64,000 nucleotides of DNA from a virus. The position numbers and the translations under genes were made by a program. The notes beneath the pieces are model-generated. The model saw only the letters and a list, made by a program, of their open reading frames with translations. It was not told where the DNA came from and searched no databases. Shown here piece after piece: positions 2,266 to 25,631 of this stretch. The stretch's first letter is position 1; each line of letters opens with the position of its first letter. Location: positions 17,892 to 81,891 of IMG/VR virus record IMGVR_UViG_3300027917_000034. One strand, given 5' to 3'.

Positions 2266-3138
2266 ATGTACGACCTGGACAACACCAGCCTCGGGCTCTG
2301 GGTAGACCTGCCGAGGCGGATGGTTCTCACCCCTGACTTCTTCCGCTGGTTCGCTGAGACGCTCCGGTTCGACCTCATGTCGATCATGATCGATGACGCG
2401 GACCCAGCGGTGGAGTTTTCTTGGACTGAGAAGGATGTCGAGCGAGCCCTCAAGATGGCCGACCCTTACGCCATCGAGATCGCGCTCACGACCTGGCCGT
2501 ACCCGGACGTGAACCTGCTTCGCCTCATGGAGCAGAAGATGGACGCGCTGCTCGGCGTTGGGCCGGTGGGCGAGTGGGAGACGGACCAGGAATTCAACTG
2601 GCAAGAGGACGACGTGAACGGCTTCGCCAACCTCGACAAGGCGGGCGATGCGTTGGTCGATATCAAGGGCCGGCTCTGCGACAAGCACGGCTGCCGGAAC
2701 ACGATGACGACCTTCACCTACCATCGGGAGAACAGCCCGAAGGCTGACACCGCGCAGCACATGGACCGTGTGATGGTCCAGGCGTATGCGACCGACGAGC
2801 GGGACGGCAAGCCGGTCACGTGGGACCACCGCTTCGGCCCTGGCCGTATGCAAACTCTCACCCTCAACCGCACGATGAAGGTGCCAGGTGTCGCGGCCGG
2901 CGTGGTCGAGCTAGGTGTGGGTCATGCGGCGTGGAATCAAGACGGCTTCCGGCGCCGGGTGGACGGAGAGTGGGTCGTCATGCCGGCCAACGACGCGATG
3001 GTGGCATCGTTCGAGGCATCGCTCCACTACAAGCCCGTGGCGCACAACTGGTGGAGCGCGAAATTCTGCTACCCACAGAGCCGCCGGTTCCTGTCCTACG
3101 CCGAGACCTTCCTCGTCGGGCTCCGGGAAGCCGCCTAG
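2266..3138 (+). CDS. putative glycoside-hydrolase-like TIM-barrel protein (GH25-like)
   Basis: AGGAGG RBS; WxYP, DxE ('ETDQE') and 'MVQAY' motifs; function tentative. Confidence 0.45.
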   Translation: MYDLDNTSLGLWVDLPRRMVLTPDFFRWFAETLRFDLMSIMIDDADPAVEFSWTEKDVERALKMADPYAIEIALTTWPYPDVNLLRLMEQKMDALLGVGPVGEWETDQEFNWQEDDVNGFANLDKAGDALVDIKGRLCDKHGCRNTMTTFTYHRENSPKADTAQHMDRVMVQAYATDERDGKPVTWDHRFGPGRMQTLTLNRTMKVPGVAAGVVELGVGHAAWNQDGFRRRVDGEWVVMPANDAMVASFEASLHYKPVAHNWWSAKFCYPQSRRFLSYAETFLVGLREAA

Positions 3139-6296: not shown

Positions 6297-6872
6297 ATGA
6301 CGTTCGATGAAGCGATCCACACGTATGTCGAGTCCCTGTTGACGGGCGACCTCATGACCGCCGACGCGGAGACGGCCAACGTCGAGTCCGTGGTCCAGGC
6401 ATGGGTTCTCCTGAAGTACACCCAGGACCGTATCGAGGCTCGCCTGAAGGGCCTGCGGAACGTGCTTCTGGACCGCGCCGAGGAATTCGGCAAGTCCACC
6501 GAGAAGGGAGGGAACAAGCTCTCGGTCGATGGCACCGTCGTCCTGCGGGAGAAGCGGGTCGCGGCGCTCCCCGAGGAGAAGGGGCTCCGGGCTCTCCTAG
6601 AGGACCGAGGGATCAAGCCGACTGAGGCGTTCTCCAAGGTCACGAAAGTCGTCCTGGACGCCTCCAAGGTCCAGGCGCTCGTGGACCTGGGGAAGTTGCC
6701 CGAGGACAAGGTGCAGGCGCTCAAGAAGGTCACGTGGGCTCTCCGCGTGAAGGAGTCGTTCGAGTTGGCCGAAGCCCTCGACGCGATCGTCGGTGAAGCC
6801 GGCGAAGAGATCGTGGAGAAGGCCCCCCGCGCCAAGCGCTCCAAGCCGTCCGGCTCTCGAAAGGGGGAGTGA
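6297..6872 (+). CDS. hypothetical protein
   Basis: 191 aa; GAGG RBS. Confidence 0.75.
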   Translation: MTFDEAIHTYVESLLTGDLMTADAETANVESVVQAWVLLKYTQDRIEARLKGLRNVLLDRAEEFGKSTEKGGNKLSVDGTVVLREKRVAALPEEKGLRALLEDRGIKPTEAFSKVTKVVLDASKVQALVDLGKLPEDKVQALKKVTWALRVKESFELAEALDAIVGEAGEEIVEKAPRAKRSKPSGSRKGE

Positions 6873-6873
6873 C

Positions 6874-7713
6874 ATGGGCGACATGACCGTCGAGAGGCTT
6901 CCGAGCAGCGCGTTCGCACCGAAGACCGACCTCGTGTACGAGGATGTGAACAAGCTCCTCCCACTGTTCGACCAGATCGCCTTCAAGGCCAACCTCATCC
7001 TCGTCGGTCCGAAGGGCGTGGCGAAGACGCTCTCGATCGCCTCGTGGGCCGCGTCCAACGACTGCCCCATCGTCACGTTCGACTGCTCCGAGGACGTGCG
7101 CCGGGCACACCTGCTCGGCATGTTCACGCTCCGGGGCGACGAGTCGCCATTCGTGCTCGGCCCGCTGCCGACCGCCATCGAAGTCGCGAACGAGGTGGGC
7201 CGGTGTGTCCTCTGCCTGGAGGAGATCAACGCGCTCACTCCCAGCGTCCAGAAGATGCTGAATGCGATCGGAGATTACCGGCGGCGCATCGAGGTGCCCG
7301 AGTGCCAGCGCGTGTTCGAGTTGGACCCGAAGGCGAAACTGTGGCTCTGCGGGACCATGAACACGAGCGTCTACGGCGGCGTCTACGAGTTGAACGAGGA
7401 CTTGAAGTCCCGGTTCCGCATGCTGCCGGTCGGCTACCCGGGCAAGGGCGAAGAGACGCGCATCCTGAAGGCGTGCGTCGGCAACGGGGTGAAGAAGGAG
7501 ACGGTCAAGGACATCCTCACCCTCGCGCACGAGACGCGCCAGAAGTCGCTGGCCTACTCGCTCTCGCCTCGTGACACGGTGCAGATCTTGGAGGACGTCG
7601 GCCACTGCGGTCTGGAGAGCGCTCTGTTGCTCGCCAGCGGCAAATTCGAGGGCCAGGACAGGGACTTCTTCCTGACCCGCGTGTCGTCGGTCTTCGGCAT
7701 CACACTGAAGTAG
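6874..7713 (+). CDS. MoxR/CbbQ-NirQ-NorQ/CobS-type AAA+ ATPase
   Basis: Walker A GPKGVAKT, Walker B CLEEIN, 'GTMN', 'LKSRF'; adjacent VWA gene. Confidence 0.88.
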   Translation: MGDMTVERLPSSAFAPKTDLVYEDVNKLLPLFDQIAFKANLILVGPKGVAKTLSIASWAASNDCPIVTFDCSEDVRRAHLLGMFTLRGDESPFVLGPLPTAIEVANEVGRCVLCLEEINALTPSVQKMLNAIGDYRRRIEVPECQRVFELDPKAKLWLCGTMNTSVYGGVYELNEDLKSRFRMLPVGYPGKGEETRILKACVGNGVKKETVKDILTLAHETRQKSLAYSLSPRDTVQILEDVGHCGLESALLLASGKFEGQDRDFFLTRVSSVFGITLK

Positions 7714-7723
7714 CGGGGGCGCC

Positions 7724-9694
7724 ATGTCTGAGATCGACGTTGACGCCCTCATGGGCGCAGAAGTGGAGACCTCTACCAAGGCGCTCTGCTACAAGACGGT
7801 TGACGTGTTCGCCGGGATAGTGGACCGCAAGCTCTGGCTCAAGGACGCCCCGCACGGCCAACCCCAGACGAACGGCTTCCTGATCGAAGTGCCTTTCTCG
7901 CACCCCCGCGCGTACCAGTACACGGAGCACGAGATCAGCCACATCCTCTTCCAGTCCGATTTCCTGGCGAAGCAGAAATTCATCGAAGAGTACAGCCAGA
8001 AGATCGGGCAGGTCGCGAAGAAGGCCGGGGCTCCGATCAACGAACGGATGCTTCGCGCCGGGCTGGACGGGATCATCGGTGTGCTGGACGACGAGCGGGT
8101 CATCTCGCTCTGGGGGCTGCTCTATCGAGGCTCCGAGGCCATCATGCGCCACATGAAGGCCGAGGAAGCAGTGCCCCACATGGGCCGGGCTCACGAGGAC
8201 TTCATCACCCTGCTCCTGTGCGTGGCGAGCGGCAACGACGTGCCTCCGGGAAAGCTCGACCGATTCGTCCCGTACATGCTGGAGGCGCTGCGGAAGGTGC
8301 ACCTGCGGGACTACTTCGGCTGCCTCGTGACCGCGAAGTGGCTCATCGTCCAACTGGTCTCCGAGATCATCCGGAAGTCGAGGGGCGAAGACCCTCCCCC
8401 GCTGCCCTCATTCCAGCCCGGAGCCGGACAGGGCGGGGCCTTCGGGTCTCAGGGTGCCCCTGGGGGCCTCCAGGACGGCTCTGGAGACGAGGAGCCGCCA
8501 TCTATGCCCTGGGAGGCGGACGGAGCCTCAGAGGGCTCTGAGGCCCCTTCTGGGGGCCACGGAGAGGCTGCCTGGGAGCCGCCCGAGGTCCAGGCCGGTC
8601 TGGAGGACCGCTCCAAGGCCATGCAGGACGTGATCGATGGGCTCGGCAAGGCACCCTCGAACATCACGAGCGAGGTGGTCGAGGGCAAATTCAAGCGGCG
8701 GGGTGAAGAGGCCGCAGCCAACCGCCGGGCTCGTGCGGCGATCAACGCGGACGTGAAGGATTCGAGCAAGTTGGAGGACGCGCTGGAGATTTCGGCCGGG
8801 CAGATGTTCCGCATCGTGGACAAGGCCCGCCACGCGACCAAGAACGCGCCGAATCACGACGACCGCATCCGGCACGAGAGCTACGCCAAGGTCGTCTTCA
8901 AGGACGTGAACCCTTCGGAGCACCGCGACCCTCACGCGAAGCTGGACGATGGGAGGGACGACGACACCGTGGCCCGGCTCCGCGCTCTGTTCCACCGGGT
9001 CATGGGCCGGCGTGTCAACGCGCTGGAGGAAGCTGGTTCGCAGATCGACATTCCGGCCTACATCGAACGCCGGATGACGAACGAGCCGCTGCCCGTCTTC
9101 CGCGTGGACCGCTTCGGCCGTGGGTTCCGCACCCTCATCCTCGTGGACCGCTCCTCGTCCATGTCCGGCCGCCGCACGGCGCAAGCGGAGAGAGCTTGCA
9201 GGGTCATCACCCGGGCGCTGGACTTCCCGTTCGTCACGCGCTCCGTCTGGGGCTTCCAGTCCTGGAAGGAAGGGCAGGTGGACATCACGCGGTTCCGGGC
9301 CGGGCAAGAGGTGTTCGAGTCGGAGTCGGCAGCAGTCGGCGGCGTCACTCCTCTCCACACGGCCATCCGAGTCGCCCTGAAAGAGTTGGAGGACGGCACG
9401 GACCGGAAGCACCTGTTCGTGATCAGCGATGGCTTCCCCGTCTTCGCTCGAAAGGACGGCGCGCACTTCGGGACCAAGACGCTCATGGGGTTCGTCCGAG
9501 GCAACGTCATGAGCGCCCGCGCGAAGGGCATGGGCGTCACCGGGGTCATGATTGGACGCGACCTGCCGGCCAAGTCCATGTCGTTCATGTTCGGCCCGTC
9601 GAAATACTGGCGCATCATGGGTGAGGACTCTTTCGGCAACGACCTCGTTCAACTGGTGACGGGCGCCTTTGTCGAGTACCTGAAGTCGAGGTGA
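7724..9694 (+). CDS. VWA-domain protein (CobT/NorD-like) with N-terminal HExxH
   Basis: MIDAS DRSSS, GGVTP, ISDG; HEISH near N-terminus. Confidence 0.85.
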   Translation: MSEIDVDALMGAEVETSTKALCYKTVDVFAGIVDRKLWLKDAPHGQPQTNGFLIEVPFSHPRAYQYTEHEISHILFQSDFLAKQKFIEEYSQKIGQVAKKAGAPINERMLRAGLDGIIGVLDDERVISLWGLLYRGSEAIMRHMKAEEAVPHMGRAHEDFITLLLCVASGNDVPPGKLDRFVPYMLEALRKVHLRDYFGCLVTAKWLIVQLVSEIIRKSRGEDPPPLPSFQPGAGQGGAFGSQGAPGGLQDGSGDEEPPSMPWEADGASEGSEAPSGGHGEAAWEPPEVQAGLEDRSKAMQDVIDGLGKAPSNITSEVVEGKFKRRGEEAAANRRARAAINADVKDSSKLEDALEISAGQMFRIVDKARHATKNAPNHDDRIRHESYAKVVFKDVNPSEHRDPHAKLDDGRDDDTVARLRALFHRVMGRRVNALEEAGSQIDIPAYIERRMTNEPLPVFRVDRFGRGFRTLILVDRSSSMSGRRTAQAERACRVITRALDFPFVTRSVWGFQSWKEGQVDITRFRAGQEVFESESAAVGGVTPLHTAIRVALKELEDGTDRKHLFVISDGFPVFARKDGAHFGTKTLMGFVRGNVMSARAKGMGVTGVMIGRDLPAKSMSFMFGPSKYWRIMGEDSFGNDLVQLVTGAFVEYLKSR

Positions 9695-11417: not shown

Positions 11418-12503
11418 ATGGCTACGTGGAGCGGCTTGTCGAGAAAACTCAGGGGGGCGGCGGTGATCGGAGCCATCCTGGTCGCTGTTGCGGCTGGGGC
11501 GTCCGTGACCCCTTTCCTCATCTCCTGCGAAGACACTGCGGAGGCTGGGGAGACCACCTGGGAGGAGCGGCGCCAGAAGGTGAGGGAGAGGCGAGCGAAA
11601 GAGGCCGCCGACTTCCGCCTGCGATGGGAGCAACGCGAACAGGCGTGGGAGGAGCGCCGGGCGAAGCAACTGGCCGAGGACGAGGCGCGGAGAGCGCGGT
11701 GGGAGAGGGAGCTTGCGAAGGCGCCGCCCCAAAAGCGTGTCCGCCGTGTCCGCCGGTTCCGGTGGGAGAGCCCAGCCGAGACGCGGGGCAAGGTCTGGAA
11801 TGTGCCTGTCGAGGAGACCGTGGAGTCGCTGGAGACGGCCCTGCTCCGGGTGTGCATAGCCGAGGCCGATGGCAACCCGCAGGACTGCGCCGGCATCTGG
11901 CAGGTGATCAAGAGCAACCGTCGCCGGTCGTGCGACCGAGGGATGATCCGCCGAATCACGGAGTGCGTGGACGGCGAGGGCGAGACCTACCTCTCCGCCA
12001 TCCGTCGCCACCAGCGCCACGTGCTCGGGATGATCAAGGCCCGCAACCAACGCGCGACGTGGGTGAGAAATCTCACCACGGACTGTGAGATGCCAGAGGG
12101 GTGGCCCGCCAGCCGAGAGCGGTGGGACTCGCAGTACGGCACCAAGACCTGCCCGCAGACCGTGGCCGACGTTCGCCGGCTACTCGCCGGGAAGTTGCCC
12201 GAGTCGAGGCCGGGAGCCCGCGTCCGATGGCTGCCAGGCCGCCCCGTGACGTGGGGAGGTCGCTGCGAGACCGGCAGAGGGGCCTGTGACGACCGGATCG
12301 CCTGTGCCAGGGGTCTGGCTCGCATCCCGGGCACGGACACTCTGAATGCCTTCTGGTGCCGTCCAGGACGTGCCGGTTGCCCGGAGGATATCGACCCGAT
12401 CTGCATTCAGATGGGGTATCCGAGCCGCCTGAAGGCGCCCGAGCCGGCCGAGACGGTGACGGCGATCGATCCCGTGGAGGAGCCCTCAGACGAAAACTCT
12501 TGA
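11418..12503 (+). CDS. membrane-anchored or lipoprotein with SleB-like (Hydrolase_2) lytic transglycosylase motif, Cys-rich C-terminus
   Basis: Hydrophobic N-terminus ending LISC; charged helical stalk; 'LLRVCIAEADG...AGIWQVIKSNR' resembles the SleB catalytic-Glu segment. Confidence 0.55.
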   Translation: MATWSGLSRKLRGAAVIGAILVAVAAGASVTPFLISCEDTAEAGETTWEERRQKVRERRAKEAADFRLRWEQREQAWEERRAKQLAEDEARRARWERELAKAPPQKRVRRVRRFRWESPAETRGKVWNVPVEETVESLETALLRVCIAEADGNPQDCAGIWQVIKSNRRRSCDRGMIRRITECVDGEGETYLSAIRRHQRHVLGMIKARNQRATWVRNLTTDCEMPEGWPASRERWDSQYGTKTCPQTVADVRRLLAGKLPESRPGARVRWLPGRPVTWGGRCETGRGACDDRIACARGLARIPGTDTLNAFWCRPGRAGCPEDIDPICIQMGYPSRLKAPEPAETVTAIDPVEEPSDENS

Positions 12504-12528
12504 CCTCGTGCTCCGAGGGGAGCAGTAT
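12500..12528 (+). promoter_or_regulatory. possible promoter of replication operon
   Basis: TTGACC-N17-CAGTAT. Confidence 0.45.
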
Positions 12529-12543
12529 CGTCCTCCGGTCTTG

Positions 12544-12750
12544 TGGAGGCCCACCACTAGACCGGGGAAAAAGGCATAGCTATGAAGCCTCTATGTGATA
12601 TAGTCCGTTTCTGCACGAGCCCGCTTGGAGTACGGGTTCGGGGATTGGCGTTGGCGTAAGCCACGCCCAACGGCGCTCCAAGCGCCGACGTCACAATAGC
12701 TATGCGGTCCCCGTTCTCCGTTGGGCCTCCAAGTGGGCTCGTGCTTTTTT
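12544..12750 (+). ncRNA. structured leader/attenuator-like RNA
   Basis: 18-bp stem 12613-12630/12727-12744 followed by T6; nested inner stems; competing upstream complementary segments. Confidence 0.6.
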
Positions 12751-12781
12751 ATGTGCGAGCCACAAGGGAGGAAGGTGGTTC

Positions 12782-14176
12782 GTGCGAGTCGGTCCCGAGC
12801 AATTCATCTACCGCGACTTCGCGTTCATCGACGCGATGATCCTGCCCGTCGTCGGTCCCAAGACCGTCGCCATCTACGACGTCCTCCGTCGCTACATCTG
12901 GCGCGCATCCGACAAGGGGGCGAAGAGGTCGAGAGACGCCTTCAAGAAGGGAAAGCTCTCTGCCTCCATCACCCGTAGCAAGTTGGCCGAGATGTCTGGC
13001 GTCTCCGTCCGAACCGTCCAGCGCCATCTCAACCGGCTCCGGGATATCTCGTGGGTGCGCTGGGAGAGCGGGAACGGGACCGGGGAAACGGTCGTCTACG
13101 AGCTAGGCTTCCGCACCCCGGACGGGGCCGAGGTGTTCTACGCCGACGCCAGCGCCAGGAAGCTGTGGCTCGGCCTGGAAGAGTTGGCCGTGCAGAGTGA
13201 GGTGGAGCGGGTGAACGACCTGCCCTGCGATGTGCGCCTGGCATTCACCCGGGGGTGGTTCGACCCAGAGGGGGGTGGTGACAAAAATGTCACCAGGGAG
13301 GTGTCATCGGTGTCACCAGGGGTGGTGACAGAAATGGCACCTAGTAATAGAGAACCCTTCGGGGAAGAAATAGAGAAGGGTTCCGAATATGCTGGGCGCT
13401 CCGCGCCAACACAGCCAACCGGCCCCGGACCAAAGCATTGGGACCAGCCCGCCGGACAAGAACGTAGAAGAAGGTCTCGGAAGAAGAAGGATCGAGAAAC
13501 AAGTGGCGCCGAGTTTGCTATTGACTCTGCTCTTGACTCCAGGCAGGATGAAGAGGACAGGCTCGAACGCGCGGCGGCGGCCGGGAAGATCGGCAAGTCC
13601 AAGGCCGACAAGCAACACGAGGCTGACGTGCGGCGGGCGCAGAGGCGGTTGGAGGAGAAGCGGACGGAGCAGGTGGAGAAGGGTCAGGCGAACGAGCAGC
13701 GAGCCAAGAACCTGAAGGGCGGGACCAAGTACACGCACGCGGTACTGAAGGCGGCTCGTCGTGCGTGGGACGTCTACTCCGACCTGATCAGAAGTGACTT
13801 CCCCGGCATGCCGGTGGTGAGGTGGAACGCGGATGGCAATGCGAAGGCGCGTGGTCAGATGTGTCGCCTCGTGGATATGTATGGTGGCGATGCCACGGTG
13901 CAAGCGATACGCTATGTGGTAGGAAATTGGGACGCGATCAACAAGCGCTTCTTCAAAAAAGGGCCGGGGAGCGTTCCAAACTTCGGGCTGCTCCTGTCCA
14001 TGCACGAGTCTCTGTTCCGAGAGTCGGCGCTGTGGGGGCAACACCGGGAGGTCGTGGAGGAGTGGGAGGCGTGGCAGCACGAGCACGAGGACGACGACGA
14101 GACGCCTCCCTCCGAGTTGCAGGGGCGCTATGAGCAGGCAAGGACAGCGTTGGAGTCTCTCGGGCTCGGGGGTTGA
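12782..14176 (+). CDS. replication initiator protein (N-terminal wHTH; lambda O-like role)
   Basis: HTH 'SKLAEMSGVSVRTVQRHLNRL'; internal iterons; directly upstream of DnaC-like and DnaB genes. Confidence 0.75.
   Translation: MRVGPEQFIYRDFAFIDAMILPVVGPKTVAIYDVLRRYIWRASDKGAKRSRDAFKKGKLSASITRSKLAEMSGVSVRTVQRHLNRLRDISWVRWESGNGTGETVVYELGFRTPDGAEVFYADASARKLWLGLEELAVQSEVERVNDLPCDVRLAFTRGWFDPEGGGDKNVTREVSSVSPGVVTEMAPSNREPFGEEIEKGSEYAGRSAPTQPTGPGPKHWDQPAGQERRRRSRKKKDRETSGAEFAIDSALDSRQDEEDRLERAAAAGKIGKSKADKQHEADVRRAQRRLEEKRTEQVEKGQANEQRAKNLKGGTKYTHAVLKAARRAWDVYSDLIRSDFPGMPVVRWNADGNAKARGQMCRLVDMYGGDATVQAIRYVVGNWDAINKRFFKKGPGSVPNFGLLLSMHESLFRESALWGQHREVVEEWEAWQHEHEDDDETPPSELQGRYEQARTALESLGLGG
13277..13341. 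repeat. three 18-bp palindromic iterons GGTGACA-N4-TGTCACC; probable replication origin
   Basis: Copies at 13277, 13300, 13324 (23-24 bp period), followed by an A-rich tract. Confidence 0.75.
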
Positions 14177-14824: not shown

Positions 14825-16222
14825 GTGGACCTGGACACCATCTTTGTCGCTAGTGCGCTGAAAGGCGGGCGAGCGGCTGTCAGACTGGCCATCGACAAGG
14901 GCGTGGATGAGGACTGCCTGGCTGGGCAGGGCCTCAAAGCCTGGCGGTTCGTTCTCGACTACCTGAAGCAGTACCACGACGTCCCCGATCCAGCGATGGT
15001 ACAGGGGAAGACCGGCGTGAAGCTGGACGACCCTCCCCCCGGCACGCCACCGGAGTTTTACATAGACGAGGTGCTCAACCGCCGGCTCCACAATGCCATC
15101 GGGGCGCAACTCTCAGAGATCGTCAAGCACTTCAAGGCTCGCGACCCACAGGCGGCCTACGCGGAGTACGAGGATGGGCTCCGGGAGCTACGGAAGCTGG
15201 GCACCCACGCCGCGAGGACGGTGAGCCTCCCCTCACTCGGGTCGGAATTCCTGGACTACTACGACAAACTCAAGGCCGGGTACCGGGGCATCCTCACCCC
15301 GTGGCCAACGATCAATGAGGCGACTCTCGGCTTCTGGCCCGAGGATTTCGTCCTGTACGTCGCTCGCCTCGGGGTCGGCAAGACGTGGGCGCTGGCGATC
15401 ATCGCGGACAACGTGTGGACGGTACAGAAGAAGCGCGTTCTGTTCGCCACGACAGAGATGGCGCAACTGAAGATCATGCAGCGGTGGGTCGCCATCCACT
15501 TCAAGTACCCGTACAACGATCTTCGGAAGGGCCTTCTCTCCGCGTTCGCGGAACAGAAGATGCGCGACCGTCTGGGAGAGATGGCGAAAGAGGAAGGGCT
15601 CTATATCATCGGCGGCGATTTCGACTTCAGGATCGAATCCCTGGAGGCGGCGATCGAAGAGGCCGAGCCCGACGTGGTGTTCATGGACGGTGCCTACCTC
15701 TTGAAGGTCAAGGGAGAGGGCCGGACCGAGAAGGCGGCCAACTCGTTCGATGAATTGAAGCGTGTGGCCAAGCGCAACCACCTCCCGCTCGTCGCCTCGA
15801 CGCAATTCAACCGCGAGGTGAAGGGGAACAAACTCTCCTCGGCAGGCCCCGAGAAGATCGCCCTCTCCGACGCGGCCGGATGGAACGCTGATCTCATCTT
15901 CGGGCTGGTGCGGACAGACGACATGAAGCGCGACAAGCGCATGGTCCAGCTACCCCTGAAATTCCGAGAGGGGGAGGGTGAAGAAATCGAGACGCATTGG
16001 GACTTCGATACGATGAATTTCGATGAGCTACCAAAGGGCGCTGCGGCGGCCGTAGCGGGCTCTGGAGGCGCCGGAGGCTCTGGGGGTGCCGGAGGCGGTC
16101 AGGCGGGCTCTGGAGGCGGCTCAGGGGCCTCTACGGGCGGTTCTGGACCGGACCCGGACCCCTATGGAACCGGGCTCCTGTTCGGGGACGATGACGATAC
16201 GAAAGACCAGGTGCCTTTCTGA
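14825..16222 (+). CDS. dnaB: replicative DNA helicase, DnaB family
   Basis: ARLGVGKT, TTEM, FMDG, QFNR, K.R.G motifs. Confidence 0.9.
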   Translation: MDLDTIFVASALKGGRAAVRLAIDKGVDEDCLAGQGLKAWRFVLDYLKQYHDVPDPAMVQGKTGVKLDDPPPGTPPEFYIDEVLNRRLHNAIGAQLSEIVKHFKARDPQAAYAEYEDGLRELRKLGTHAARTVSLPSLGSEFLDYYDKLKAGYRGILTPWPTINEATLGFWPEDFVLYVARLGVGKTWALAIIADNVWTVQKKRVLFATTEMAQLKIMQRWVAIHFKYPYNDLRKGLLSAFAEQKMRDRLGEMAKEEGLYIIGGDFDFRIESLEAAIEEAEPDVVFMDGAYLLKVKGEGRTEKAANSFDELKRVAKRNHLPLVASTQFNREVKGNKLSSAGPEKIALSDAAGWNADLIFGLVRTDDMKRDKRMVQLPLKFREGEGEEIETHWDFDTMNFDELPKGAAAAVAGSGGAGGSGGAGGGQAGSGGGSGASTGGSGPDPDPYGTGLLFGDDDDTKDQVPF

Positions 16223-16687: not shown

Positions 16688-17752
16688 ATGGACGTTGGCG
16701 AGATCCGACAATTCCTGCATGCGCTGGGATGCCAGAAGATTTCGGTCGGGACCAAGTGGGTGCGCTCCACATGCCCTATGGGGCACCTTCACGCGGGCGG
16801 AAAAGATCGGCAGCCCTCGTTCGCCATCTGCATAGACCCTGGCGACGAGAGCAACTGTCGGTGCCAGGCGTGCGGCATTTACGGCGGGCTCATCCCCCTC
16901 GTGTGGCGCATCTCAGCCGATGGAAGGCGGCCACGGCCTGACCTGTTCGACTTCCTGGTCAAGCACAATCAGATGGACGTGGAGAAGCTGGACCTGGACC
17001 CACCGGAGCCGGCCCCGGACGACCTGGAGGGGCAGATACGAGCGGCGCGGAAGTACGTGCCCAACCCCAAGCGCAAGAGCAAATTCGTCCACCCGGACGA
17101 CGAGCCCCAAGCCGAGGTTCCCGAGGACGTCCTACGGCAGATGATCGCGGACATGCCGGACTACGTGCTCGACTACCTGACCAGGAAGCCGGACCCGATC
17201 ATGGGGGTCGATGGGAGGGGGTTGGAGCCGCTGACGATCGCGGAGTGGGAATTGGGGTGGCACAAGGTCAACCGGCGCGTCTGCATTCCCATCCGAGATG
17301 AGGACGGCAAACTCGTGGCGATCAGCGGGAGGGCATTCGAGGATCAACAGCCGAAGTACCTCCACAGCCGATTCAAGCGGGACCGCGTACTATTCGGGGA
17401 GCACAAGCACGATGCGACCGTTCGCTCTGGCTCCCTGTTCGAGGGCTTCTTCCAGACCATCTACACGTGGCAGTACGGCTACGTGAACACCCTTGCTCGG
17501 ATGGGCACGCACCTGAGTCGGCAGCAGTCCGAGAAGCTGGTCCGATGGTTCGATCACCTGCTCATCGTACCGGACGGAGATGCGGCCGGACGCAACTCGG
17601 CCGAGCAGATACGGGACACCCTGGCAGCCCTCGAAATCGACGGTCACAGGATAGAGCAGATCGACATCGCTCCGATGCCGAACAAGAAAGACGCCGACAC
17701 CCTGAAACCTGAGAAGTTGATAGAGGTTATGGGGCCTCGAAATAGCGCTTGA
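16688..17752 (+). CDS. dnaG: DNA primase (Zn-binding + TOPRIM)
   Basis: CP..H..C.AC Zn domain; SGR, KYLHS, EG, DGD.AG, KD. Confidence 0.88.
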   Translation: MDVGEIRQFLHALGCQKISVGTKWVRSTCPMGHLHAGGKDRQPSFAICIDPGDESNCRCQACGIYGGLIPLVWRISADGRRPRPDLFDFLVKHNQMDVEKLDLDPPEPAPDDLEGQIRAARKYVPNPKRKSKFVHPDDEPQAEVPEDVLRQMIADMPDYVLDYLTRKPDPIMGVDGRGLEPLTIAEWELGWHKVNRRVCIPIRDEDGKLVAISGRAFEDQQPKYLHSRFKRDRVLFGEHKHDATVRSGSLFEGFFQTIYTWQYGYVNTLARMGTHLSRQQSEKLVRWFDHLLIVPDGDAAGRNSAEQIRDTLAALEIDGHRIEQIDIAPMPNKKDADTLKPEKLIEVMGPRNSA

Positions 17753-19913: not shown

Positions 19914-21254
19914 GTGGACGTCACTATTGACGGGTGGGCTTGGCTGCCCAAGACCGATCTCACACCAGACCAGATCGTGAACATGGAGCGTATGCTCACG
20001 GTCCATCCTCAGAAGGTCGGGGACTATCCGGGCGACGAGCCCAAGCCGATCCCTCTCTACCAGCACGACGGGAAGCATCGGTTTGGTGTCCCTCGTGAAT
20101 TCTTCTTCGCCAACAGGCGCCACGTTCATGATGTGGACCTCCAGGTGACGGAGGGCTCCAAGGACTGGTGGCCGGCGGAGTTTGTCGGCACCCTCCGGCC
20201 GGAGCAGAAGGTCGCCACGAACGAGGTGGTGTCCATGTTCCGGGCCGGGCGTCTCGGCGGCATCGTCCAGGCGAAGCCCGGGTGGGGCAAGACGGTGGCC
20301 GCGCTCGCCATCGCTGCCGAGTTGGGGTTGCCCACGCTCGTCGTGGTCCACAAGGAATTCCTCATGGACCAGTGGACGGAGCGAATCGAGAAATTCCTTC
20401 CGGCGGCGAAGATCGGGCGTGTCCAACAGAACGAGTGCGACTTCCGAGGTAAGACGGTGGTGATGGGCATGGTTCACTCCCTCGGCGGAGACCAGCCCTA
20501 CCCGGACGACCTGTGGGAGTGGCCGGGACTGCTCATCGTGGACGAGTGCCACCGGATAGGGGCTCGCACGTGGGCGCCCGTGCCTCCGAGGTTCATGTCC
20601 AAGTACCGTCTCGGGTTCACGGCGACCCCGCGCCGCAAGGACGGCGCCGATGACGTCTTCTGGCAGCACATCGGGCCGATCGTGTTCGCCGGAAAAGAGG
20701 AGCGGCTACGCCCCGTGATCAAGCGGGTGTGGACGAAATTCCGCCTCGTGAAGACGGACAGGTTCAACCCCCACCTGGCCCCGAAAGCTCTCATCACGCG
20801 GTTCCTGGTCAAGAGCCGGCACCGCAATGACCTGATCATCGACCAACTGATCGCTGCTCTGGAAGCCGGAAGGAAGATCCTGGTCCTGAGCGAACGCCTT
20901 CAACACCTGACGGACCTGGAGGCCCAGCTTCGCAAGATGTGGCCAGCGGTGGCTGGGGCCATCTCAATCGGGCAGTACGTTGGCGGCCGGTCCAAGGCGC
21001 AACTCGAACGGTCGGCCGAGGCCAAGGTCATCTTCGCGACGATCCAATACGCTGCCGAGGGGCTGGACATTCCGGCCCTGGACACGCTGTTCCTTACAAC
21101 CCCCATGAGCGACGTGGAGCAGGCAGTCGGGCGCATACAGCGTCCCTTCCACGGCAAGAAAGACCCGATCGTGGTGGACTTCAGGGACGACGCTATCCCG
21201 ATGTTCGAGGCGATGGGTCGGAAGCGGGATCGCTTCTACGTGAGGGTGACTTGA
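19914..21254 (+). CDS. superfamily 2 helicase (UvsW/XPB-like)
   Basis: PGWGKT, DECH, TATP, EGLDIP, Q.VGRI.R. Confidence 0.9.
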   Translation: MDVTIDGWAWLPKTDLTPDQIVNMERMLTVHPQKVGDYPGDEPKPIPLYQHDGKHRFGVPREFFFANRRHVHDVDLQVTEGSKDWWPAEFVGTLRPEQKVATNEVVSMFRAGRLGGIVQAKPGWGKTVAALAIAAELGLPTLVVVHKEFLMDQWTERIEKFLPAAKIGRVQQNECDFRGKTVVMGMVHSLGGDQPYPDDLWEWPGLLIVDECHRIGARTWAPVPPRFMSKYRLGFTATPRRKDGADDVFWQHIGPIVFAGKEERLRPVIKRVWTKFRLVKTDRFNPHLAPKALITRFLVKSRHRNDLIIDQLIAALEAGRKILVLSERLQHLTDLEAQLRKMWPAVAGAISIGQYVGGRSKAQLERSAEAKVIFATIQYAAEGLDIPALDTLFLTTPMSDVEQAVGRIQRPFHGKKDPIVVDFRDDAIPMFEAMGRKRDRFYVRVT

Positions 21255-21279
21255 CAATCGGGGCCTATTTGGTAGAGGT
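21251..21279 (+). promoter_or_regulatory. possible sigma70-type promoter
   Basis: TTGACA then TGGTAGAGGT. Confidence 0.45.
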
Positions 21280-21285
21280 TGGGGC

Positions 21286-22086
21286 ATGCCGCGCGCCCCG
21301 AAAGCTCAGGACTATTTCCAGGAGTGGTACGACGACAACCGCGAGGACTTGAACGAGCGGCGCCGGGCTCGCTACGCGACGGACCCGGAGTACAGAAGGA
21401 AGGTCCAGAAGTGGAATCGGGAGGCCCGGGAGCGGCGCAGGAAGGAATCCGAGAAAGAGGATCGGAAGGCGAAGCGAGCGGTGAAGATCAAGACGGCAGG
21501 GTCATGGAAGACGGTCGAAATCGAGGTGGATGGCGTCATGGTACGCATGTTCACCATCGGGGCTCTCGCGCGTGCGATAGGCAAGGGCATCTCGACCATC
21601 CGCGTCTGGGAGCGCAACGGCACCCTGCCGGAGACACCGTACCGATCGAAGAAGGGAGACCGTCTCTACACGCTGGAGATGGTCGAGTCGATCCAGAGCG
21701 CGCTCCGCAAGGCAGGAAAACTCGACATCGGTGTCCTCAAAGAGAGGAAGCGACCGGCCTACGTGGAGAAAGACGTCCGGTTCAAGGGGCGGAAGAAGCT
21801 GGTCCGGATGCGGCTCTACAAGATCGGCACGCTGGCCAGGGCGGTCAACAGGACGGTGGTAGCTCTCACGCAGATGGAGAAGCGTGGTGTGCTGCCGAAG
21901 ACGCCACTCGCGGCGTCCTCGCTGGAGTACCGGCTCTACACGCTCGACATGATAGAGGTCGTGCAGTCCGCGTTCGACAAGCGGGGAGGAGTGATCCGAG
22001 GGCAGTCCGAGTGGGAAGATTTCCACGATGAGATCGTGGATGGATGGACGAGGCTAGGAATCATGGACGCGAGGTTGGAAGAATGA
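21286..22086 (+). CDS. regulator with two MerR-type HTH domains
   Basis: FTIGALARAIGKGISTIRVWER.G.LP...RLYT and YKIGTLARAVNRTVVALTQMEK.G.LP...RLYT. Confidence 0.8.
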   Translation: MPRAPKAQDYFQEWYDDNREDLNERRRARYATDPEYRRKVQKWNREARERRRKESEKEDRKAKRAVKIKTAGSWKTVEIEVDGVMVRMFTIGALARAIGKGISTIRVWERNGTLPETPYRSKKGDRLYTLEMVESIQSALRKAGKLDIGVLKERKRPAYVEKDVRFKGRKKLVRMRLYKIGTLARAVNRTVVALTQMEKRGVLPKTPLAASSLEYRLYTLDMIEVVQSAFDKRGGVIRGQSEWEDFHDEIVDGWTRLGIMDARLEE

Positions 22087-22532
22087 AGGCAAAGCCGGTG
22101 AAAGACGACCACCCGACCGCTGAAAAGCAGGTCGAACAGGACATGGCCGAGGTCGAGGAAGCGTTGGCCGACGCGGTGAGCGGGACGGTCGAGATGCGGC
22201 CGATCGTGCTTCGCGTGCGCCGCCAGTACAAGCACAGCGGCGATCTCGTCATCGACCCGGAGGAAGAGGTCGAGGAGATCCAGGTGCAGGACTTCCACGT
22301 GGACCCGGCGCATGCTGGCCTGCGTGTGAACCACACCTTGAACCTTGGCAACTTCTGGTCCCTGTCGGTCCAGGTATCGCTCGACGTGCCGTGCTACCGG
22401 GAGGAGTACGCCGAGGCCATGAAGTTTGTGGCCAAGACGGTCGCGGACCGCCTGGGAACGGAAATCGAGAAGGGTCAGGAACGTGCTTCCGAGCTTCGCA
22501 AGTCGCGCGGCACCGGATCGAAGCTGTTCTAG
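22083..22532 (+). CDS. hypothetical protein
   Basis: ATGA overlap; 'TLNLGNF.S' motif. Confidence 0.7.
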   Translation: MKAKPVKDDHPTAEKQVEQDMAEVEEALADAVSGTVEMRPIVLRVRRQYKHSGDLVIDPEEEVEEIQVQDFHVDPAHAGLRVNHTLNLGNFWSLSVQVSLDVPCYREEYAEAMKFVAKTVADRLGTEIEKGQERASELRKSRGTGSKLF

Positions 22533-22541
22533 GGAGGCACC

Positions 22542-23648
22542 ATGGCCAAGCAAGAGGACCGATTCAAGGCGCTCATGGCGAGCGACCTGATCGCGAAGAT
22601 CCAGAAGAAGCACGGCAAGAGCATCCTGACGCCGGCCAGTGACTTCCACATCCGGCACATCCCACGCATCCCCACTGGCGTCTTCTTCCTGGACTACGCG
22701 CTCGGAGGTGGGGGGTTCCCTGCCGGACGCACGAACATCGTCTGGGGCCACAAGAGCACGGGCAAGACGGTCATCTGCCTGCGGGCTATGGGCAATGCTC
22801 AGAAGCTCTGCGCCAACTGCTACACGTTCCCCGACGAGGAGACGGGGAAGTGCCAGTGTGGGGACTTCCGCGAGACCATCTGCTCGTTCCTGGACGTCGA
22901 GGGCTCGTGGGATCAGGAGTGGGCGCAGCTACACGGGGTCAACACGGAGCGAGTGCTGCTCTCCGTCCCCGAGTACGCCGAGCAAACTCTGGACATCGCA
23001 GAGGCGCTGCTCCGGTCCGGAGACGTGGACTTCCTGGTCATCGACTCTCTGGCCTTCATGACCCCGGCGAAGGAGATCGAAGAGAGTGCCGGCAAGGCTC
23101 TCCAGGCCGAACAGGCGCGTGTCCTCGGGAGAGGCATCCGCAAATTCGGCGCCGCCTTGAACCACATGGGCAACGTGACGGGGAGGCGTCCGACGCTCCT
23201 GTTCACGAACCAGATTCGGATGAAGGTTGGGCTCCTCTTCGGCAACCCGGAGACGCAGCCCGGGGGGTACGCGCCCGGGTTCTCCGCGACGACGGAGACC
23301 AAGACCTACGGCGGCAAGTACGAGATGGACGACGTGACCGGGCGGCCGATCCATGTGGACATGAGCTACAGGGTCGAGAAAAACAAGTCGTCCGGCGCTA
23401 AGATCGAAGGCGAATGGCGGCTCATGCTCGCGGACACCTCGATCAAGAAGAAGGGCGAGGTCTACGAGGAGCCCGCCATGATAGAGATGGGGATCAAGAT
23501 CGGGCTCGTGGAGAAGCAGGGGAATGGCTGGGTATGCCTCGGAGAGAAGTACAAGTCGAAATCTCTCCTGGTCAAGACGATGGTGGAGAACGCGGGCCTG
23601 AAGAAGCAGTACGGGGACACTCTGATGAGCGTCCTGACGGCGGGGTAG
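22542..23648 (+). CDS. recA: RecA/UvsX recombinase with Cys4 insertion
   Basis: IPTG..LDYALG.GG.P.GR, GHKSTGKT, VIDSLA, NQIRMKVG..FGNPET.PGG, KNK. Confidence 0.93.
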   Translation: MAKQEDRFKALMASDLIAKIQKKHGKSILTPASDFHIRHIPRIPTGVFFLDYALGGGGFPAGRTNIVWGHKSTGKTVICLRAMGNAQKLCANCYTFPDEETGKCQCGDFRETICSFLDVEGSWDQEWAQLHGVNTERVLLSVPEYAEQTLDIAEALLRSGDVDFLVIDSLAFMTPAKEIEESAGKALQAEQARVLGRGIRKFGAALNHMGNVTGRRPTLLFTNQIRMKVGLLFGNPETQPGGYAPGFSATTETKTYGGKYEMDDVTGRPIHVDMSYRVEKNKSSGAKIEGEWRLMLADTSIKKKGEVYEEPAMIEMGIKIGLVEKQGNGWVCLGEKYKSKSLLVKTMVENAGLKKQYGDTLMSVLTAG

Positions 23649-24034
23649 ACGGCCCACGGCCGAAGGCGTTCGATCCCAACTATGACCGGGCGAAGAAGTC
23701 CACGCGAGAGGAGCGCAAGGTCGCGAAGCGTCTTGGCGGGCGCACCCACAAGCGATCTGGTGGTCTCCCATGGTCGAGGCACGACCCCACGACGGCGTGC
23801 GGCGACGTCACTACTCCGGATCTTCACATAGAGCACAAGCGGGCCGAGCCCGACACCAAGTCGATAGGTGTGACTCGGGCCTGGCTCGCCAAGGTGAGCG
23901 AGGGAGCCCGGAGGCGCATGAAGACCCCGGCCATGGTGCTCCACTATGAGGGTGCCAAGGGGCACGCCGAGGACTGGCTCATGATGCCTTTGGACGTGGC
24001 GGAGCGGCTCCTGGCCGTCCTGAAAGAGGACTAG
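23534..24034 (+). CDS. PD-(D/E)XK nuclease (Holliday-junction-resolvase-like); start uncertain
   Basis: E..VAK..GG...SG...GDV...IEHK. Confidence 0.65.
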   Translation: MPRREVQVEISPGQDDGGERGPEEAVRGHSDERPDGGVDGPRPKAFDPNYDRAKKSTREERKVAKRLGGRTHKRSGGLPWSRHDPTTACGDVTTPDLHIEHKRAEPDTKSIGVTRAWLAKVSEGARRRMKTPAMVLHYEGAKGHAEDWLMMPLDVAERLLAVLKED

Positions 24035-24388
24035 ATGACTGGCAAGCCGATGCTCCTGAGAGACCTTGAACGCCTGCGCCCGCACCTGCATGTGCCGGCC
24101 TTCGATCGGGTCCGAGTCCTCATCGCGGGGGACTCCGGCAATCTCCGTCTGGACCTGGAGTGCATTGCGTGTGAGGACTTGCTAGAATGGGACGCCTCCA
24201 AGGGATGGTGGGTCTGTCCAGGCTGTCAACAAGAGACGACAGACCGAGAAGGCGCGGCCCTACTCCGAGCCTGCTACAAGGGCCTCGGAGAGGTGCTGGG
24301 CGAGACGACGGACGACGGCGAGACCGAGGATGAAGGGAAGGGTATCGGACGATGGGTACAGAAATTCATGGGGATCTCAAACCGCTGA
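24035..24388 (+). CDS. Zn-ribbon protein
   Basis: CIAC...CPGC. Confidence 0.65.
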   Translation: MTGKPMLLRDLERLRPHLHVPAFDRVRVLIAGDSGNLRLDLECIACEDLLEWDASKGWWVCPGCQQETTDREGAALLRACYKGLGEVLGETTDDGETEDEGKGIGRWVQKFMGISNR

Positions 24389-25194
24389 TCCGTAGCGCCA
24401 TTCCAGAGCAACGGAAGAAGCCCCCACTCACCAAAGACGACTGGATTCGGGTCTCGGGACTGGCGATGCTCTGCGCCCGGGAGGAAGTGCTCGCCTCTCG
24501 TCTCGGGGTCGTGAGAGACGACAACATCGACGCCGATCTCATGCTCATTTTCGAGCACGGGCACGGGCTCCACTGGGACTTGCAGAACCGTGTTCTCCCG
24601 CTGACGAAAACTCTCCTCGGTCGCTGGCTCTGCGGGGCCTGTGGGACGTACCACGGCGGGGAGGACACGTGGGAGACGCCGATGGCCGGGTTCGAGGAGT
24701 CACAGATCCTTCGCCCCCTCACCTGCCCCAACTGCGGGGCTCCCATGACGTCGGACAACAGCCTCTACCACGAGCAGTGGATCAAAGACCCTCAGTACCG
24801 CCTGGCTGGCCACCCTGACGGCTTTCTGCGCCTGGAAGGCATGCCAGGGCTCGGAGTCCTGGAGGTGAAGTCGATCAGCCCGAGAGGGGCCTACGAGGTC
24901 CGCAACTGCGCGAAGCTGGACCACGTGACGCAGGCGCAGTGCTATATGTGGATGACCGGCTGCCAGTGGGGCAAGGTGCTCTATTGGGACAAGGGCACGG
25001 TCGGCATGAAGGGCCTCATCGAACACACCATCGAGTACGACGAGGACCACGTGGAGGCCATGCAGAACCTCGTGAGGGACATCTGGTCCGGCATCGAGGG
25101 CGGCAAGCTCCCGGAGCGCATCTGTGCCTCTCCGGACTGCAACCGCGCCGACCTGTGCGCCTGCTCCGAGCCGTGCTTCAAAGAGGCTGCGTGA
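24352..25194 (+). CDS. Cas4/RecB-like PD-(D/E)XK exonuclease
   Basis: N-terminal C, G..LH, HPDG, LEVKS, Q.Q.YM, C-terminal Cys cluster; Zn-ribbon insert. Confidence 0.8.
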   Translation: MGTEIHGDLKPLIRSAIPEQRKKPPLTKDDWIRVSGLAMLCAREEVLASRLGVVRDDNIDADLMLIFEHGHGLHWDLQNRVLPLTKTLLGRWLCGACGTYHGGEDTWETPMAGFEESQILRPLTCPNCGAPMTSDNSLYHEQWIKDPQYRLAGHPDGFLRLEGMPGLGVLEVKSISPRGAYEVRNCAKLDHVTQAQCYMWMTGCQWGKVLYWDKGTVGMKGLIEHTIEYDEDHVEAMQNLVRDIWSGIEGGKLPERICASPDCNRADLCACSEPCFKEAA

Positions 25195-25631
25195 TGGACG
25201 AGCGCCACAAGGCTATCGTGGACCACCCGGCCTTCCTGCAACCTGTCCCGAAGGCGGTGTTCTTGGAGCCGAGGTTGCTCCGGCCGCTCCCCCAGGCGCT
25301 CTGGGGCATGTCCTGTTCGCACTGCGACAAGCGGCAGTCGGTCTGGGAGCACTGGCGTCCGGAAGCACCTTCCAACGCGAAGAAGGGCGACCCCATGTGC
25401 TCGCTGTGCTGGCTCTACGAGTCGGCGTGGGGGAAGGAGAGGCGTGAGGACATAGACGGAATGATCCGCGCCGTGGAGGTGCACACGGGCGAGATCTTCC
25501 GCAAGATGGACGACGGACGGCTCTGGTCATGCCGAGACGCAGATCGTATTCTGGGCGCTATCGCTGTGACGTCCAGGATCATAGCCCAGAGGGCGACGTT
25601 GCAGCGGCTCGGAGGGGGCGGTGGGACGTGA
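25194..25631 (+). CDS. hypothetical Zn-binding protein
   Basis: CSHC...CSLC; TGATG coupling. Confidence 0.65.
   Translation: MDERHKAIVDHPAFLQPVPKAVFLEPRLLRPLPQALWGMSCSHCDKRQSVWEHWRPEAPSNAKKGDPMCSLCWLYESAWGKERREDIDGMIRAVEVHTGEIFRKMDDGRLWSCRDADRILGAIAVTSRIIAQRATLQRLGGGGGT

Follow-up and report, generated by a model that had tools for sequence, protein, structure and literature searches.

A putative two-state RNA leader upstream of the replication initiator operon of a large uncultured phage

Introduction

To our knowledge, the control of replication in large uncultured phages is almost unknown. A 278-nucleotide (nt) gap in the DNA of one such phage raises the question of how transcription might be admitted to its replication genes. 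The gap belongs to a 64-kb stretch (hereafter, the window; all positions are counted from its first base) that corresponds to bases 17892-81891 of the 81.9-kb IMG/VR record IMGVR_UViG_3300027917_000034, the completeness of which is estimated at ~48%. It separates an open reading frame (ORF) of 361 amino acids without an assigned family (11418-12503) from ORF 12782-14176, which appears to encode a replication initiator. An original prediction, made from the letters of this DNA, had proposed that the gap contains a two-state RNA switch acting as an attenuator or an antisense RNA.

Comparison with related phages indicates that the leader has two alternative folds on one 3' arm, both of which are backed by compensatory changes. 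Because a stem and T-tract lie between a conserved promoter-like site and the operon, and both folds have comparative support, the leader carries the signature of an attenuator. We consider that this ~215-nt element is probably a cis-acting terminator/antiterminator attenuator in the plus-strand leader RNA of an initiator-helicase-primase operon. Within this reading, we infer where transcription starts, that it ends at U6, which way the switch works and what drives it. The leader sits where transcription enters a lambda-O-type initiator gene with its own iteron origin.

Results and Discussion

Comparison set

Relatives were found by initiator protein searches and DNA pattern scans. The set consists of five distinct leaders, those of the window phage, L002, L003, L004 (= L012) and L007 (= L008), and the counts given below refer to these five. 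The initiators of the four relatives are 83%, 67%, 43% and 60% identical to that of the window, respectively. Six further initiator homologues (P0003, P0005-P0008 and P0010) are outside the leader comparison. The leader always lies directly 5' of the initiator homologue, and a covariance model of its core finds exactly one copy per phage record. The core is ~85% conserved, compared with 43-83% for the flanking proteins.

Terminator-like fold (state A)

State A is built on stem S, whose two 18-nt arms (12613-12630 and 12727-12744) pair with a single G-U (2 matches versus 0.26 expected). T6 follows S directly at 12745-12750 and is among only four runs of at least five T residues on the plus strand of the 64 kb; a T-rich tail after S is kept in all five leaders. 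Across the set, 12 of the 18 pairs of S are invariant, one shows a one-sided change and five show both-sided changes, with mismatches occurring only at the ends. RNAalifold likewise finds both-sided changes at four S pairs, and also in the inner helix Z'. S and T6 together resemble an intrinsic terminator placed on the coding strand between the promoter-like site and the gene.

Within S, helix J (ACGGG at 12632-36 with UCCGU at 12717-21) is kept via one-sided changes, and in the RNAalifold consensus of the five homologues CGGGGATTG (12639-47) pairs with CGGTCCCCG (12705-13) to form Z'. Three versions of Z' occur (CGGGGA/UCCCCG, CGAGGA/UCCUCG and CCAGGG/CCCUGG), without a mismatch in any of the five sequences, and three of its six pairs are compensatory. 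Because J joins S and Z', the three helices make up a single rod of ~30 base pairs (bp). The rod is capped by hairpins H1 and H2, which can be re-paired as a helix between GGCGTTGGCG and CGCCGACGTC; RNAalifold returns this pairing for the five homologues, and covariation does not separate the two options. Residues 12693-12704, which the original prediction had described as bulged out, are indeed unpaired in the RNAalifold state-A fold.

Several local elements are absent from the original prediction, namely the 5' hairpin H5, an upstream open reading frame (uORF), an internal -10 motif and the 3' hairpin T2. H5 is present in the minimum free energy (MFE) structure of every leader. By RNAalifold, it has 13 pairs with two both-sided changes and many exchanges among G-C, G-U and A-U. 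Its loop exposes GGCCCA, a GCCCAAC-like part of segment X5' (see below), and its 3' strand includes part of segment Z5' and the Shine-Dalgarno (SD) sequence of the uORF. The 5' arm of S has a local alternative, hairpin h0 (12616-23 with 12633-40), which is seen in the state-B MFE structure. T2, which pairs the distal part of the 3' arm of S with 12753-61 and carries the T-tract in its loop, is also present in all five leaders. A further candidate hairpin, "H6", which would hide the uORF start in state A, was rejected because it gave no consensus structure over the five leaders.

The segment between H1 and H2, GCCCAACGG (12665-12673), is a perfect 9-nt partner of CCGTTGGGC (12718-12726). The latter is also used by X3' and J3', so that GCCCAACGG is its third perfect partner. 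In state A this pairing would be a pseudoknot. Both segments are invariant in the relatives, so covariation is uninformative here.

The folding energy of the region has a z-score against shuffled sequences of -5.4 on the plus strand and -6.0 on the minus strand. The helices of the two alignments contain ~40 G-U pairs and ~5 A-C pairs, which points to plus-strand RNA as the folded molecule, rather than DNA or the minus strand.

Long-range duplex (state B)

In state B, an upstream arm at 12543-84 forms an interrupted duplex with 12695-12732. In the window, this duplex has an energy of -50.8 kcal/mol, compared with -26.6 +/- 4.2 kcal/mol for shuffles. The values in the five leaders range from -46.7 to -54.0 kcal/mol, whereas shuffled 5' arms give -22 to -32 kcal/mol with a standard deviation of ~4, which places the real duplexes ~6 standard deviations below the shuffles. 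The duplex consists of three helices in the window. Helix X, TGGAGGCCCA (12544-53) with TGGGCCTCCA (12722-31), and helix Y, GCATAGCTAT (12574-83) with ATAGCTATGC (12696-705), are perfect 10-mers, and helix Z pairs CGGGGA (12563-68) with 12708-13. The 3' segment of X (12720-26) is extended to 12731 in the window phage; in the other leaders, the conserved X core ends just before the 3' arm of S.

Each state-A and state-B pairing of the original prediction was found where it had been placed, and both folds recur with compensatory changes in the four other distinct leaders. The fourth of its state-B pairings, CTATGTGA (12591-98) with 12691-99, is present as well, but it needs a bulge, is kept in three of the five leaders and shows no covariation.

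Helix Y appears to be the clearest evidence for state B. Its 5' strand reads GCAUAGCUAU, GGUCAUGACG, GACCAUGAC, GCUAACCGA and GCAAUGAC in the five phages, and each is perfectly complementary to its own 3' copy. Because three of the five share an AUGAC core, the set holds three fully independent versions of Y together with covarying flanks. No second copy or other target of the Y sequence was found above chance in the window. Helix X changes from GCCCA/UGGGC to ACCCA/UGGGU in L003 (G-C to A-U). In helix Z, the 3' segment covaries with the internal Z'5' in all five leaders, and the upstream Z5' is perfectly complementary to it in three, over three sequence versions. In these three phages Z5' is identical to Z'5' through three different sequences, which indicates that Z3' has been selected to pair with two partners.

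The Y arms also bear on whether the conserved unit acts as DNA, for instance as operators, a cruciform or an origin, and not as RNA. The Y core of the window, ATAGCTAT, is palindromic and occurs twice, as paired operators would, and the region adjoins the initiator gene. The Y arms of L003, L004 and L007, however, are not palindromes, and they are inverted rather than direct repeats, which rules out paired protein operators. In DNA or in the opposite strand, the numerous G-U pairs would turn into A-C mismatches, and the iterons of the likely origin lie elsewhere (13272-13342). A DNA-level function is thus highly improbable.

Choice between the two folds

The mutual exclusivity that was originally proposed applies to two pairs of elements, Z with Z' and H5 with the state-B rod; it does not extend to Y and the X core, which do not overlap S. 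The order of folding was followed by MFE calculation on a growing chain. In all homologues, 26-34 state-B pairs form first as the 3' arm emerges, with H5 melting, and the structure flips to state A plus H5 only once the last bases of S3' are out. For a transcript ending at the U-tract, state A is better by 2-19 kcal/mol. When the next 14 nt are included, allowing T2 to form, the energy of B relative to A becomes +1.5, -8.5, +3.7, -2.8 and +2.5 kcal/mol, of a total of about -110 kcal/mol; T2 thereby puts state B within ~4 kcal/mol of state A in four of the five leaders.

Based on these results, we propose the following scheme. The leader transcript most likely begins at the promoter-like site P1, near 12535. 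In state A, H5 would form and the rod would zip from the inside out (Z', J and then S) to end at U6, giving intrinsic termination. In state B, the 5' arm would take the 3' arm as Y, Z and X, S5' would be held in h0, and the distal part of S3' would later be caught by T2. No terminator would then form, and the polymerase would read into the initiator, helicase and primase genes and across the iteron origin. Because Y3' emerges first and Y5' is then its sole partner, the choice between A and B would be made at Y, and Z would stack on Y once Y has formed. With Y5', Z5' and X5' free, B would form co-transcriptionally, so that read-through would be the default of the naked transcript. With the 5' arm occupied, Z3' would pair with Z'5' and the terminator would zip up. 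The arm may be occupied by a small RNA from the same strand, by ribosomes that translate the uORF, or by both.

Several points weigh against this reading. The terminator stem closes around 96 nt of structured RNA, and intrinsic terminators seldom have such an insert. P1 and the internal promoter P2 are both below the threshold of a consensus scan, and the use of sigma-70-type promoters and U-tract terminators by the host is assumed. Five sequences are too few for a formal covariation statistic, and the state-B helices were aligned with our own scripts, without an independent aligner. The folding order comes from thermodynamic MFE snapshots rather than kinetic simulation, and T2 is weakly conserved (covariation term +0.88). 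A search of sequencing runs found no RNA run containing the phage, and the start sites, the termination at U6 and the small RNA all rest on inference. Finally, Y and the X core (GCCCAAC/GTTGGGC) share no bases with S, and a combined pseudoknotted fold is possible.

This last point is the basis of another explanation, in which H5, S/J/Z' and Y (perhaps with a loop contact of X) coexist in one static pseudoknotted RNA that serves as a structural or protein-binding element, such as an RNase III processing site, a platform to which a chaperone or the initiator binds, or an aptamer belonging to a new riboswitch class. A linker of 29 nt may bridge the rod, either rod has the length that RNase III requires, and the higher conservation of the core than of the proteins would suit a specific binding partner. 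On the other hand, Z3' has two partners that both track its changes, and H5 and the state-B rod share nucleotides. The near-equal energies of the complete folds in most homologues would have no reason under a static fold, the stem and T-tract directly before the operon are best read as a terminator, and no riboswitch family matches. We therefore regard a static RNA as unlikely, and the terminator/antiterminator attenuator remains our preferred reading.

Upstream open reading frame

An ATG-initiated ORF of 25-27 codons occurs in the same frame of all five leaders, and only that frame has one. Its ATG lies inside or abuts Y5'. In four of the leaders, Z5' provides a purine-rich SD sequence (GAGGA, GGGAG or GGGGA) 5-7 nt upstream of the ATG, and in the window the spacing is a poor 13 nt. 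The distances from the ATG to a CTA codon are 9, 15 and 18 nt, all in frame. Pairwise codon differences are 36 synonymous to 51 non-synonymous in the uORF frame, compared with 11 to 77 and 10 to 80 in the other frames. In the last 11 codons, six of the eight variable columns are third positions, and third codon positions also account for the three pairs that vary within S (positions 11, 14 and 17). This synonymous bias favours a translated uORF; the same bases are also under RNA-pairing constraint.

Translation of the uORF could itself be the signal that sets the attenuator. A ribosome in the start region would mask Y5' and Z5' and block state B, and one inside the uORF or at its end would mask S5', J5' and Z'5' and block state A. 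Stalling in response to a signal might be caused by the C-terminal part of the peptide, which is conserved. Such a role is in line with the placement of the ATG at Y5', the SD in four leaders, the unique frame with its in-frame spacings and the third-position changes, and the start region has no conserved structure in state A. The uORF stop, however, lies ~90 nt before the U-tract, and a terminating ribosome may leave before the decision is made. No codon is repeated in tandem in any of the five peptides, where just R-V-R and scattered Cys residues are seen, their ends vary (GLA or GLALA before the stop), and the SD spacing of the window is unfavourable. In addition, where the peptide is conserved best, RNA structure constrains the same positions. 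Rare A/T-ending codons (CTA, TGT and GAT) are kept in the uORF despite the 63% G+C content of the genome, which indicates constraint at the level of nucleotides rather than of protein. Ribosome-sensed attenuation is somewhat doubtful, and we put it forward tentatively as one input of the attenuator.

Promoter-like sites and a candidate small RNA

The -35 hexamer of P1 overlaps the stop codon of the upstream ORF, and the P1 pattern has a single match in the window. The promoter-like site of the original prediction was recovered in the sense that both hexamers are found in all five leaders; it fails the threshold of the consensus scan. Transcription from P1 would start near 12535.

TTGAC(A/C) also overlaps the TGA stop of the preceding gene elsewhere, the four sites being 6198, 12500, 17749 and 21251, and gaps follow all of them. 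At 6198 and 17749, a TAnnnT-like hexamer follows after ~17 nt; the case is less clear at 21251. A promoter layout with the stop codon inside the -35 hexamer seems to recur in this phage.

The internal motif P2, a putative promoter, has the pattern of an extended -10 element. The sequence CTATGTGATATAGT (12591-12604) is kept as TGnTAnnGT, which is invariant in the five leaders. T(-12), A(-11) and T(-7) are conserved though the overlapping codon varies (I, T, S, I and R). In the window, four of the 16 occurrences of TGnTAnnnT fall in short gaps 5' of genes, which make up ~3% of the sequence, and three of these four are TGCTAnnnT. No -35 hexamer is conserved for P2; ATGAC is found at 17 nt in just three of the five. 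The candidate transcript would run from 12611 to 12750 (~140 nt), and because it would lack the 5' arm, it could form state A only.

Taken together, these features raise the realistic possibility, for which the likelihood nevertheless falls short of even, that a same-strand antisense RNA is the main function of the locus. The P2 transcript or terminated P1 leaders (~140-215 nt, in state A) would act with a logic like that of P4 CI. The exposed Y3' and X3' of such RNAs would anneal in trans to leaders still being transcribed, at Y5' and at the H5 loop, thereby blocking the antiterminator and the uORF start and forcing termination. The result would be dose-dependent negative feedback, as with P4 CI RNA, and Y would set the specificity between phages (heteroimmunity or incompatibility).

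The invariance of the -10-critical positions while the overlapping codons change amino acid, the constant 8 nt to S that puts the P2 start at the stem base, and the enrichment of the motif in short gaps upstream of genes are all consistent with such an RNA. Y3' and X3' are mostly unpaired in the state-A ensemble (p 0.45-0.76), and X5' is presented in the H5 loop. In a five-by-five cross matrix of arms, the cognate 5'/3' duplex is the best in every row by a margin of 1.6-18 kcal/mol. P4 itself offers a precedent, with a sense-encoded RNA that stops transcription ahead of the replication genes (PMC4825925). Against it stand the missing -35 consensus of P2 and the position of the -10 motif inside the uORF, where its conservation may have another cause. 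The turnover of Y is explicable by drift under pairing constraint, as nearby unpaired linkers are equally variable. The specificity in the cross matrix is weak for L007 versus the window, and no Rfam family matches, C4 included.

The boldest form of this idea is an RNA-only immunity or copy-control circuit that governs the origin and replication operon of a jumbo-phage lineage. The small RNA from the internal promoter, sense to the leader but complementary to its 5' arm, would force termination by kissing contacts with the H5 loop and with the start of the uORF, and hypervariable Y would be the specificity determinant between related phages. We offer it as a speculative suggestion that is rather unlikely to hold as a whole. 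If true, P4-type logic would occur in an unrelated RNA, in phages of an unrelated group and in a genome that is far larger, joined there to a leader peptide that is translated. If the trans-acting version is correct, helix Y would also be a ready-made set of orthogonal RNA regulators.

Countertranscription is not indicated. On the minus strand of the leader, no TAnnnT or T-run is conserved across the five sequences. Of the two functions originally suggested, the attenuator is the better supported, on the two folds, the stem with its T-tract and the covariation; an antisense RNA of the plasmid type finds no conserved opposite-strand signals.

Comparison with known leader systems

The phage-plasmid P4 ends transcription prematurely, ahead of its replication genes, by means of a sense-encoded RNA that base-pairs with the leader sequences flanking it (PMC4825925). 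P4 CI RNA (with seqA and seqC) and P1/P7 C4 RNA resemble the present leader in that the RNA lies on the same strand as the leader that it controls, within it, and is complementary to it. Similarly, 12695-12732 is complementary to the leader's own 12543-12584 in all five sequences. The likeness to these RNAs drawn in the original prediction is therefore one of shared logic and not of membership, and the Rfam scan gave no match. The CI and C4 RNAs are ~70-80 nt long, tRNA-like and processed by RNase P, whereas the RNA predicted here is ~140-215 nt with a 30-bp rod. Its complementary segments also pair in cis as a built-in antiterminator, and action in trans is hypothetical. Small ORFs in the P4 leader are reportedly involved as well, a point that is attributed to Forti et al. 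1999.

The rep leaders of pT181, pIP501 and pAMbeta1 combine a terminator with an upstream "preemptor" pairing, and occupation of the upstream segment lets the terminator form (PMC2879508). The same preemptor layout in the leader of a rep gene is seen here. In contrast to these plasmids, where a countertranscript comes from the opposite strand, the present leader has no conserved minus-strand promoter or terminator and its G-U pattern is that of the plus strand. Furthermore, its antiterminator competes for the 3' arm of the terminator, not the 5' arm.

IncI1/IncB repY-repZ, with its pseudoknot, and R1 tap-repA rely on translational coupling through a leader ORF that ends at the rep start (PMC8053102 for IncI repY). 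Here, the uORF stops 122 nt before the initiator start (12782), with the stem and T6 between, which makes coupling of the repY type impossible. X3' lies 40 nt upstream of the initiator SD, and not next to the ribosome-binding site as in a repY-repZ-type pseudoknot, and no opposite-strand antisense RNA is evident.

As far as the account in PMC4825925 goes, Gifsy-1 IsrK has one promoter that gives a short terminated RNA and a read-through mRNA, and the short form pairs in trans and alters access to a small ORF. IsrK, as described there, activates translation, whereas repression by termination is likelier in the present case, and to that extent we see no similarity of sequence or structure.

Like trp-type attenuators and riboswitch platforms, the leader combines a putative promoter with a short ORF, hairpins that exclude one another and, just ahead of the operon, a last stem with a U-tract. 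It differs from them in having no runs of regulatory codons, in pairing its segments as 1:2, 2:4 and 3:4 instead of 1:2, 2:3 and 3:4, in rods of ~30-35 bp and in matching no known aptamer. The leader falls outside the C4/CI family, as it does the countertranscript systems of plasmids and the IncI repY type. We know of no described attenuator that combines an antiterminator competing for the 3' arm, a uORF start in the decision helix and a possible internal promoter for a small RNA.

Distribution of the leader

A cmscan search with permissive filters against all 4227 families of Rfam 15, C4 included, gave no match in 12500-12781 at E<=10, and a scan of the four homologous loci gave none at E<=5. 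None of the known riboswitch aptamer models in Rfam matches the leader, the window or the homologues. A Y RNA or tRNA-like identity was considered and rejected, as ARAGORN finds none in the window and Rfam none in the leader. The element thus adds an RNA family absent from Rfam, with unusually clear comparative support for two competing folds in a compact, sequence-defined form that is short enough for in vitro testing.

A scan of prokaryote genomes with a 19-mer returned 112 matches, about the chance number for its information content, and none was scored by the covariance model; the scan gave neither a prophage copy nor a clue to the host. Further scans of viral contigs returned the same phages only, plus one chance match in a coding repeat (L125), and blastn against a phage GenBank collection gave no match. 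In the helicase-based loci L127 and L129, the contig starts too near the initiator to contain the leader. L127 (IMGVR_UViG_3300017971_000546), a relative of lower G+C content, starts ~80 nt before the initiator gene. Its positions 1-90 contain a hairpin (AGCCCAC...GTGGGCT) and then T6 just before the start codon; here the contig end may have cut through a diverged form of the leader and left its 3' end.

In L004 (~2950-3000) and L007 (2838-3000), the leader is followed by a short ORF or N-terminal extension that resembles the initiator N-terminus (F..A.D.A.LPV.G.GPK...L.R), and the main initiator match comes after it. An initiator-like fragment precedes the initiator in L129, too. The pieces in L004 and L007 may be a duplicated N-terminal fragment or a small paralogue.

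Replication operon and neighbouring genes

The features of the leader and of the surrounding genes are collected in Table 1.

Table 1. Positions of leader elements and selected genes in the window
Feature	Position	Strand	Remarks
Putative promoter P1	12500-12528	+	TTGACC 12500-05, 17-nt spacer, CAGTAT 12523-28; both hexamers in 5/5, spacer varies
5' hairpin H5	12535-12565	+	MFE of five leaders, RNAalifold
State-B 5' arm	12543-12584	+	X5' 12544-54, Z5' 12563-68, Y5' 12574-83; duplex with 12695-12732
uORF	12582-12659	+	25 codons, MKPLCDIVRFCTSPLGVRVRGLALA then stop; ATG at end of Y5'; stop 12657-59 in H1 loop
Putative internal promoter P2	12596-12604	+	extended -10 TGaTATAGT; always 8 nt before S
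S5'	12613-12630	+	5' terminator arm (or local h0)
J5' and Z'5'	12632-12647	+	inner 5' rod strands; J5' 12632-36, Z'5' 12639-47
Apical hairpins H1 and H2	12647-12686	+	H1 12647-67 (GUAA loop), H2 12672-86; stems invariant, loops vary in length and sequence
Shared 3' arm	12695-12732	+	Y3' 12696-705, Z3' 12705-13, J3' 12717-21, X3' 12720-26; pairs with 5' arm (B) or 12632-47 (A)
S3' and T6	12727-12750	+	S3' 12727-44, T6 12745-50; terminator-like
T2 hairpin	12736-12761	+	distal S3' with 12753-61
Initiator SD and start	12766-12784	+	SD GGGAGGAAGGTGG, GTG start; ORF 12782-14176
ResIII/DEAD helicase	19914-21254
MerR-type helix-turn-helix protein	21286-22086
RecA-like protein	22542-23648
RuvC-like resolvase	25621-26181
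ParB_N-domain protein	27431-28393

The product of the initiator ORF has a winged helix-turn-helix domain and a weak match to the "replication initiation O-like" PHROG. It is followed by a 212-amino-acid ORF, a DnaB-like helicase (14825-16222) and a primase (16688-17752). The initiator gene contains iterons at 13272-13342, three tandem 23-nt units that each have the inverted repeat GGTGACA-N5-TGTCACC. An A/T-richer stretch lies 3' of them, and the region 13272-13377 includes AGTAATAGAGAA and AGAAATAGAGAA after the repeats. Three mid-gene repeats of 22-23 bp are found at a comparable position of the initiator in all four relatives, and the iteron sequence differs in the more distant L004 and L007. 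The in-gene iterons correspond to the arrangement of lambda O and ori, and the origin is probably inside the initiator gene.

Because an O-like initiator with in-gene iterons lies directly downstream, the description of the element as the leader of the replication initiator is a fair one, and its originally proposed position before the whole replication operon agrees with the helicase and primase genes that follow. A polymerase that passes through the leader would go on across the probable origin as well, because the iterons lie within the initiator gene. If the proposed attenuator works, it would gate both the supply of initiator, helicase and primase and the transcription across the origin. 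The leader would then be a candidate for the master switch that decides whether replication is active or is kept quiescent or delayed.

The G+C content of the window is 63%, and all called genes in its first 33 kb are on the plus strand. The DNA runs that contain the phage are marine-sediment metagenomes, three of which are probable sources. A related phage record of 184.7 kb is rated 88% complete, which implies that phages of this group are roughly 200 kb in size.

A block of recombination and repair genes follows the replication genes at 19914-28393 (Table 1). Its ParB_N-domain gene is the sole feature that could be set beside the plasmid-like carrier state raised in the original prediction, for which we otherwise have no evidence, no search aimed at an integrase or a ParA gene having been made. 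Upstream of the leader, a 656-amino-acid protein (7724-9694) has a C-terminal VWA domain (CobT_C and VWA_2 matches). It was first considered as Ro60-like, and no TROVE match was seen. The gene before it (6793-7713) encodes an AAA+ ATPase that matches a "porphyrin biosynthesis" PHROG. The two genes look like a CobS/CobT-like pair, and such pairs are frequent in large phages.

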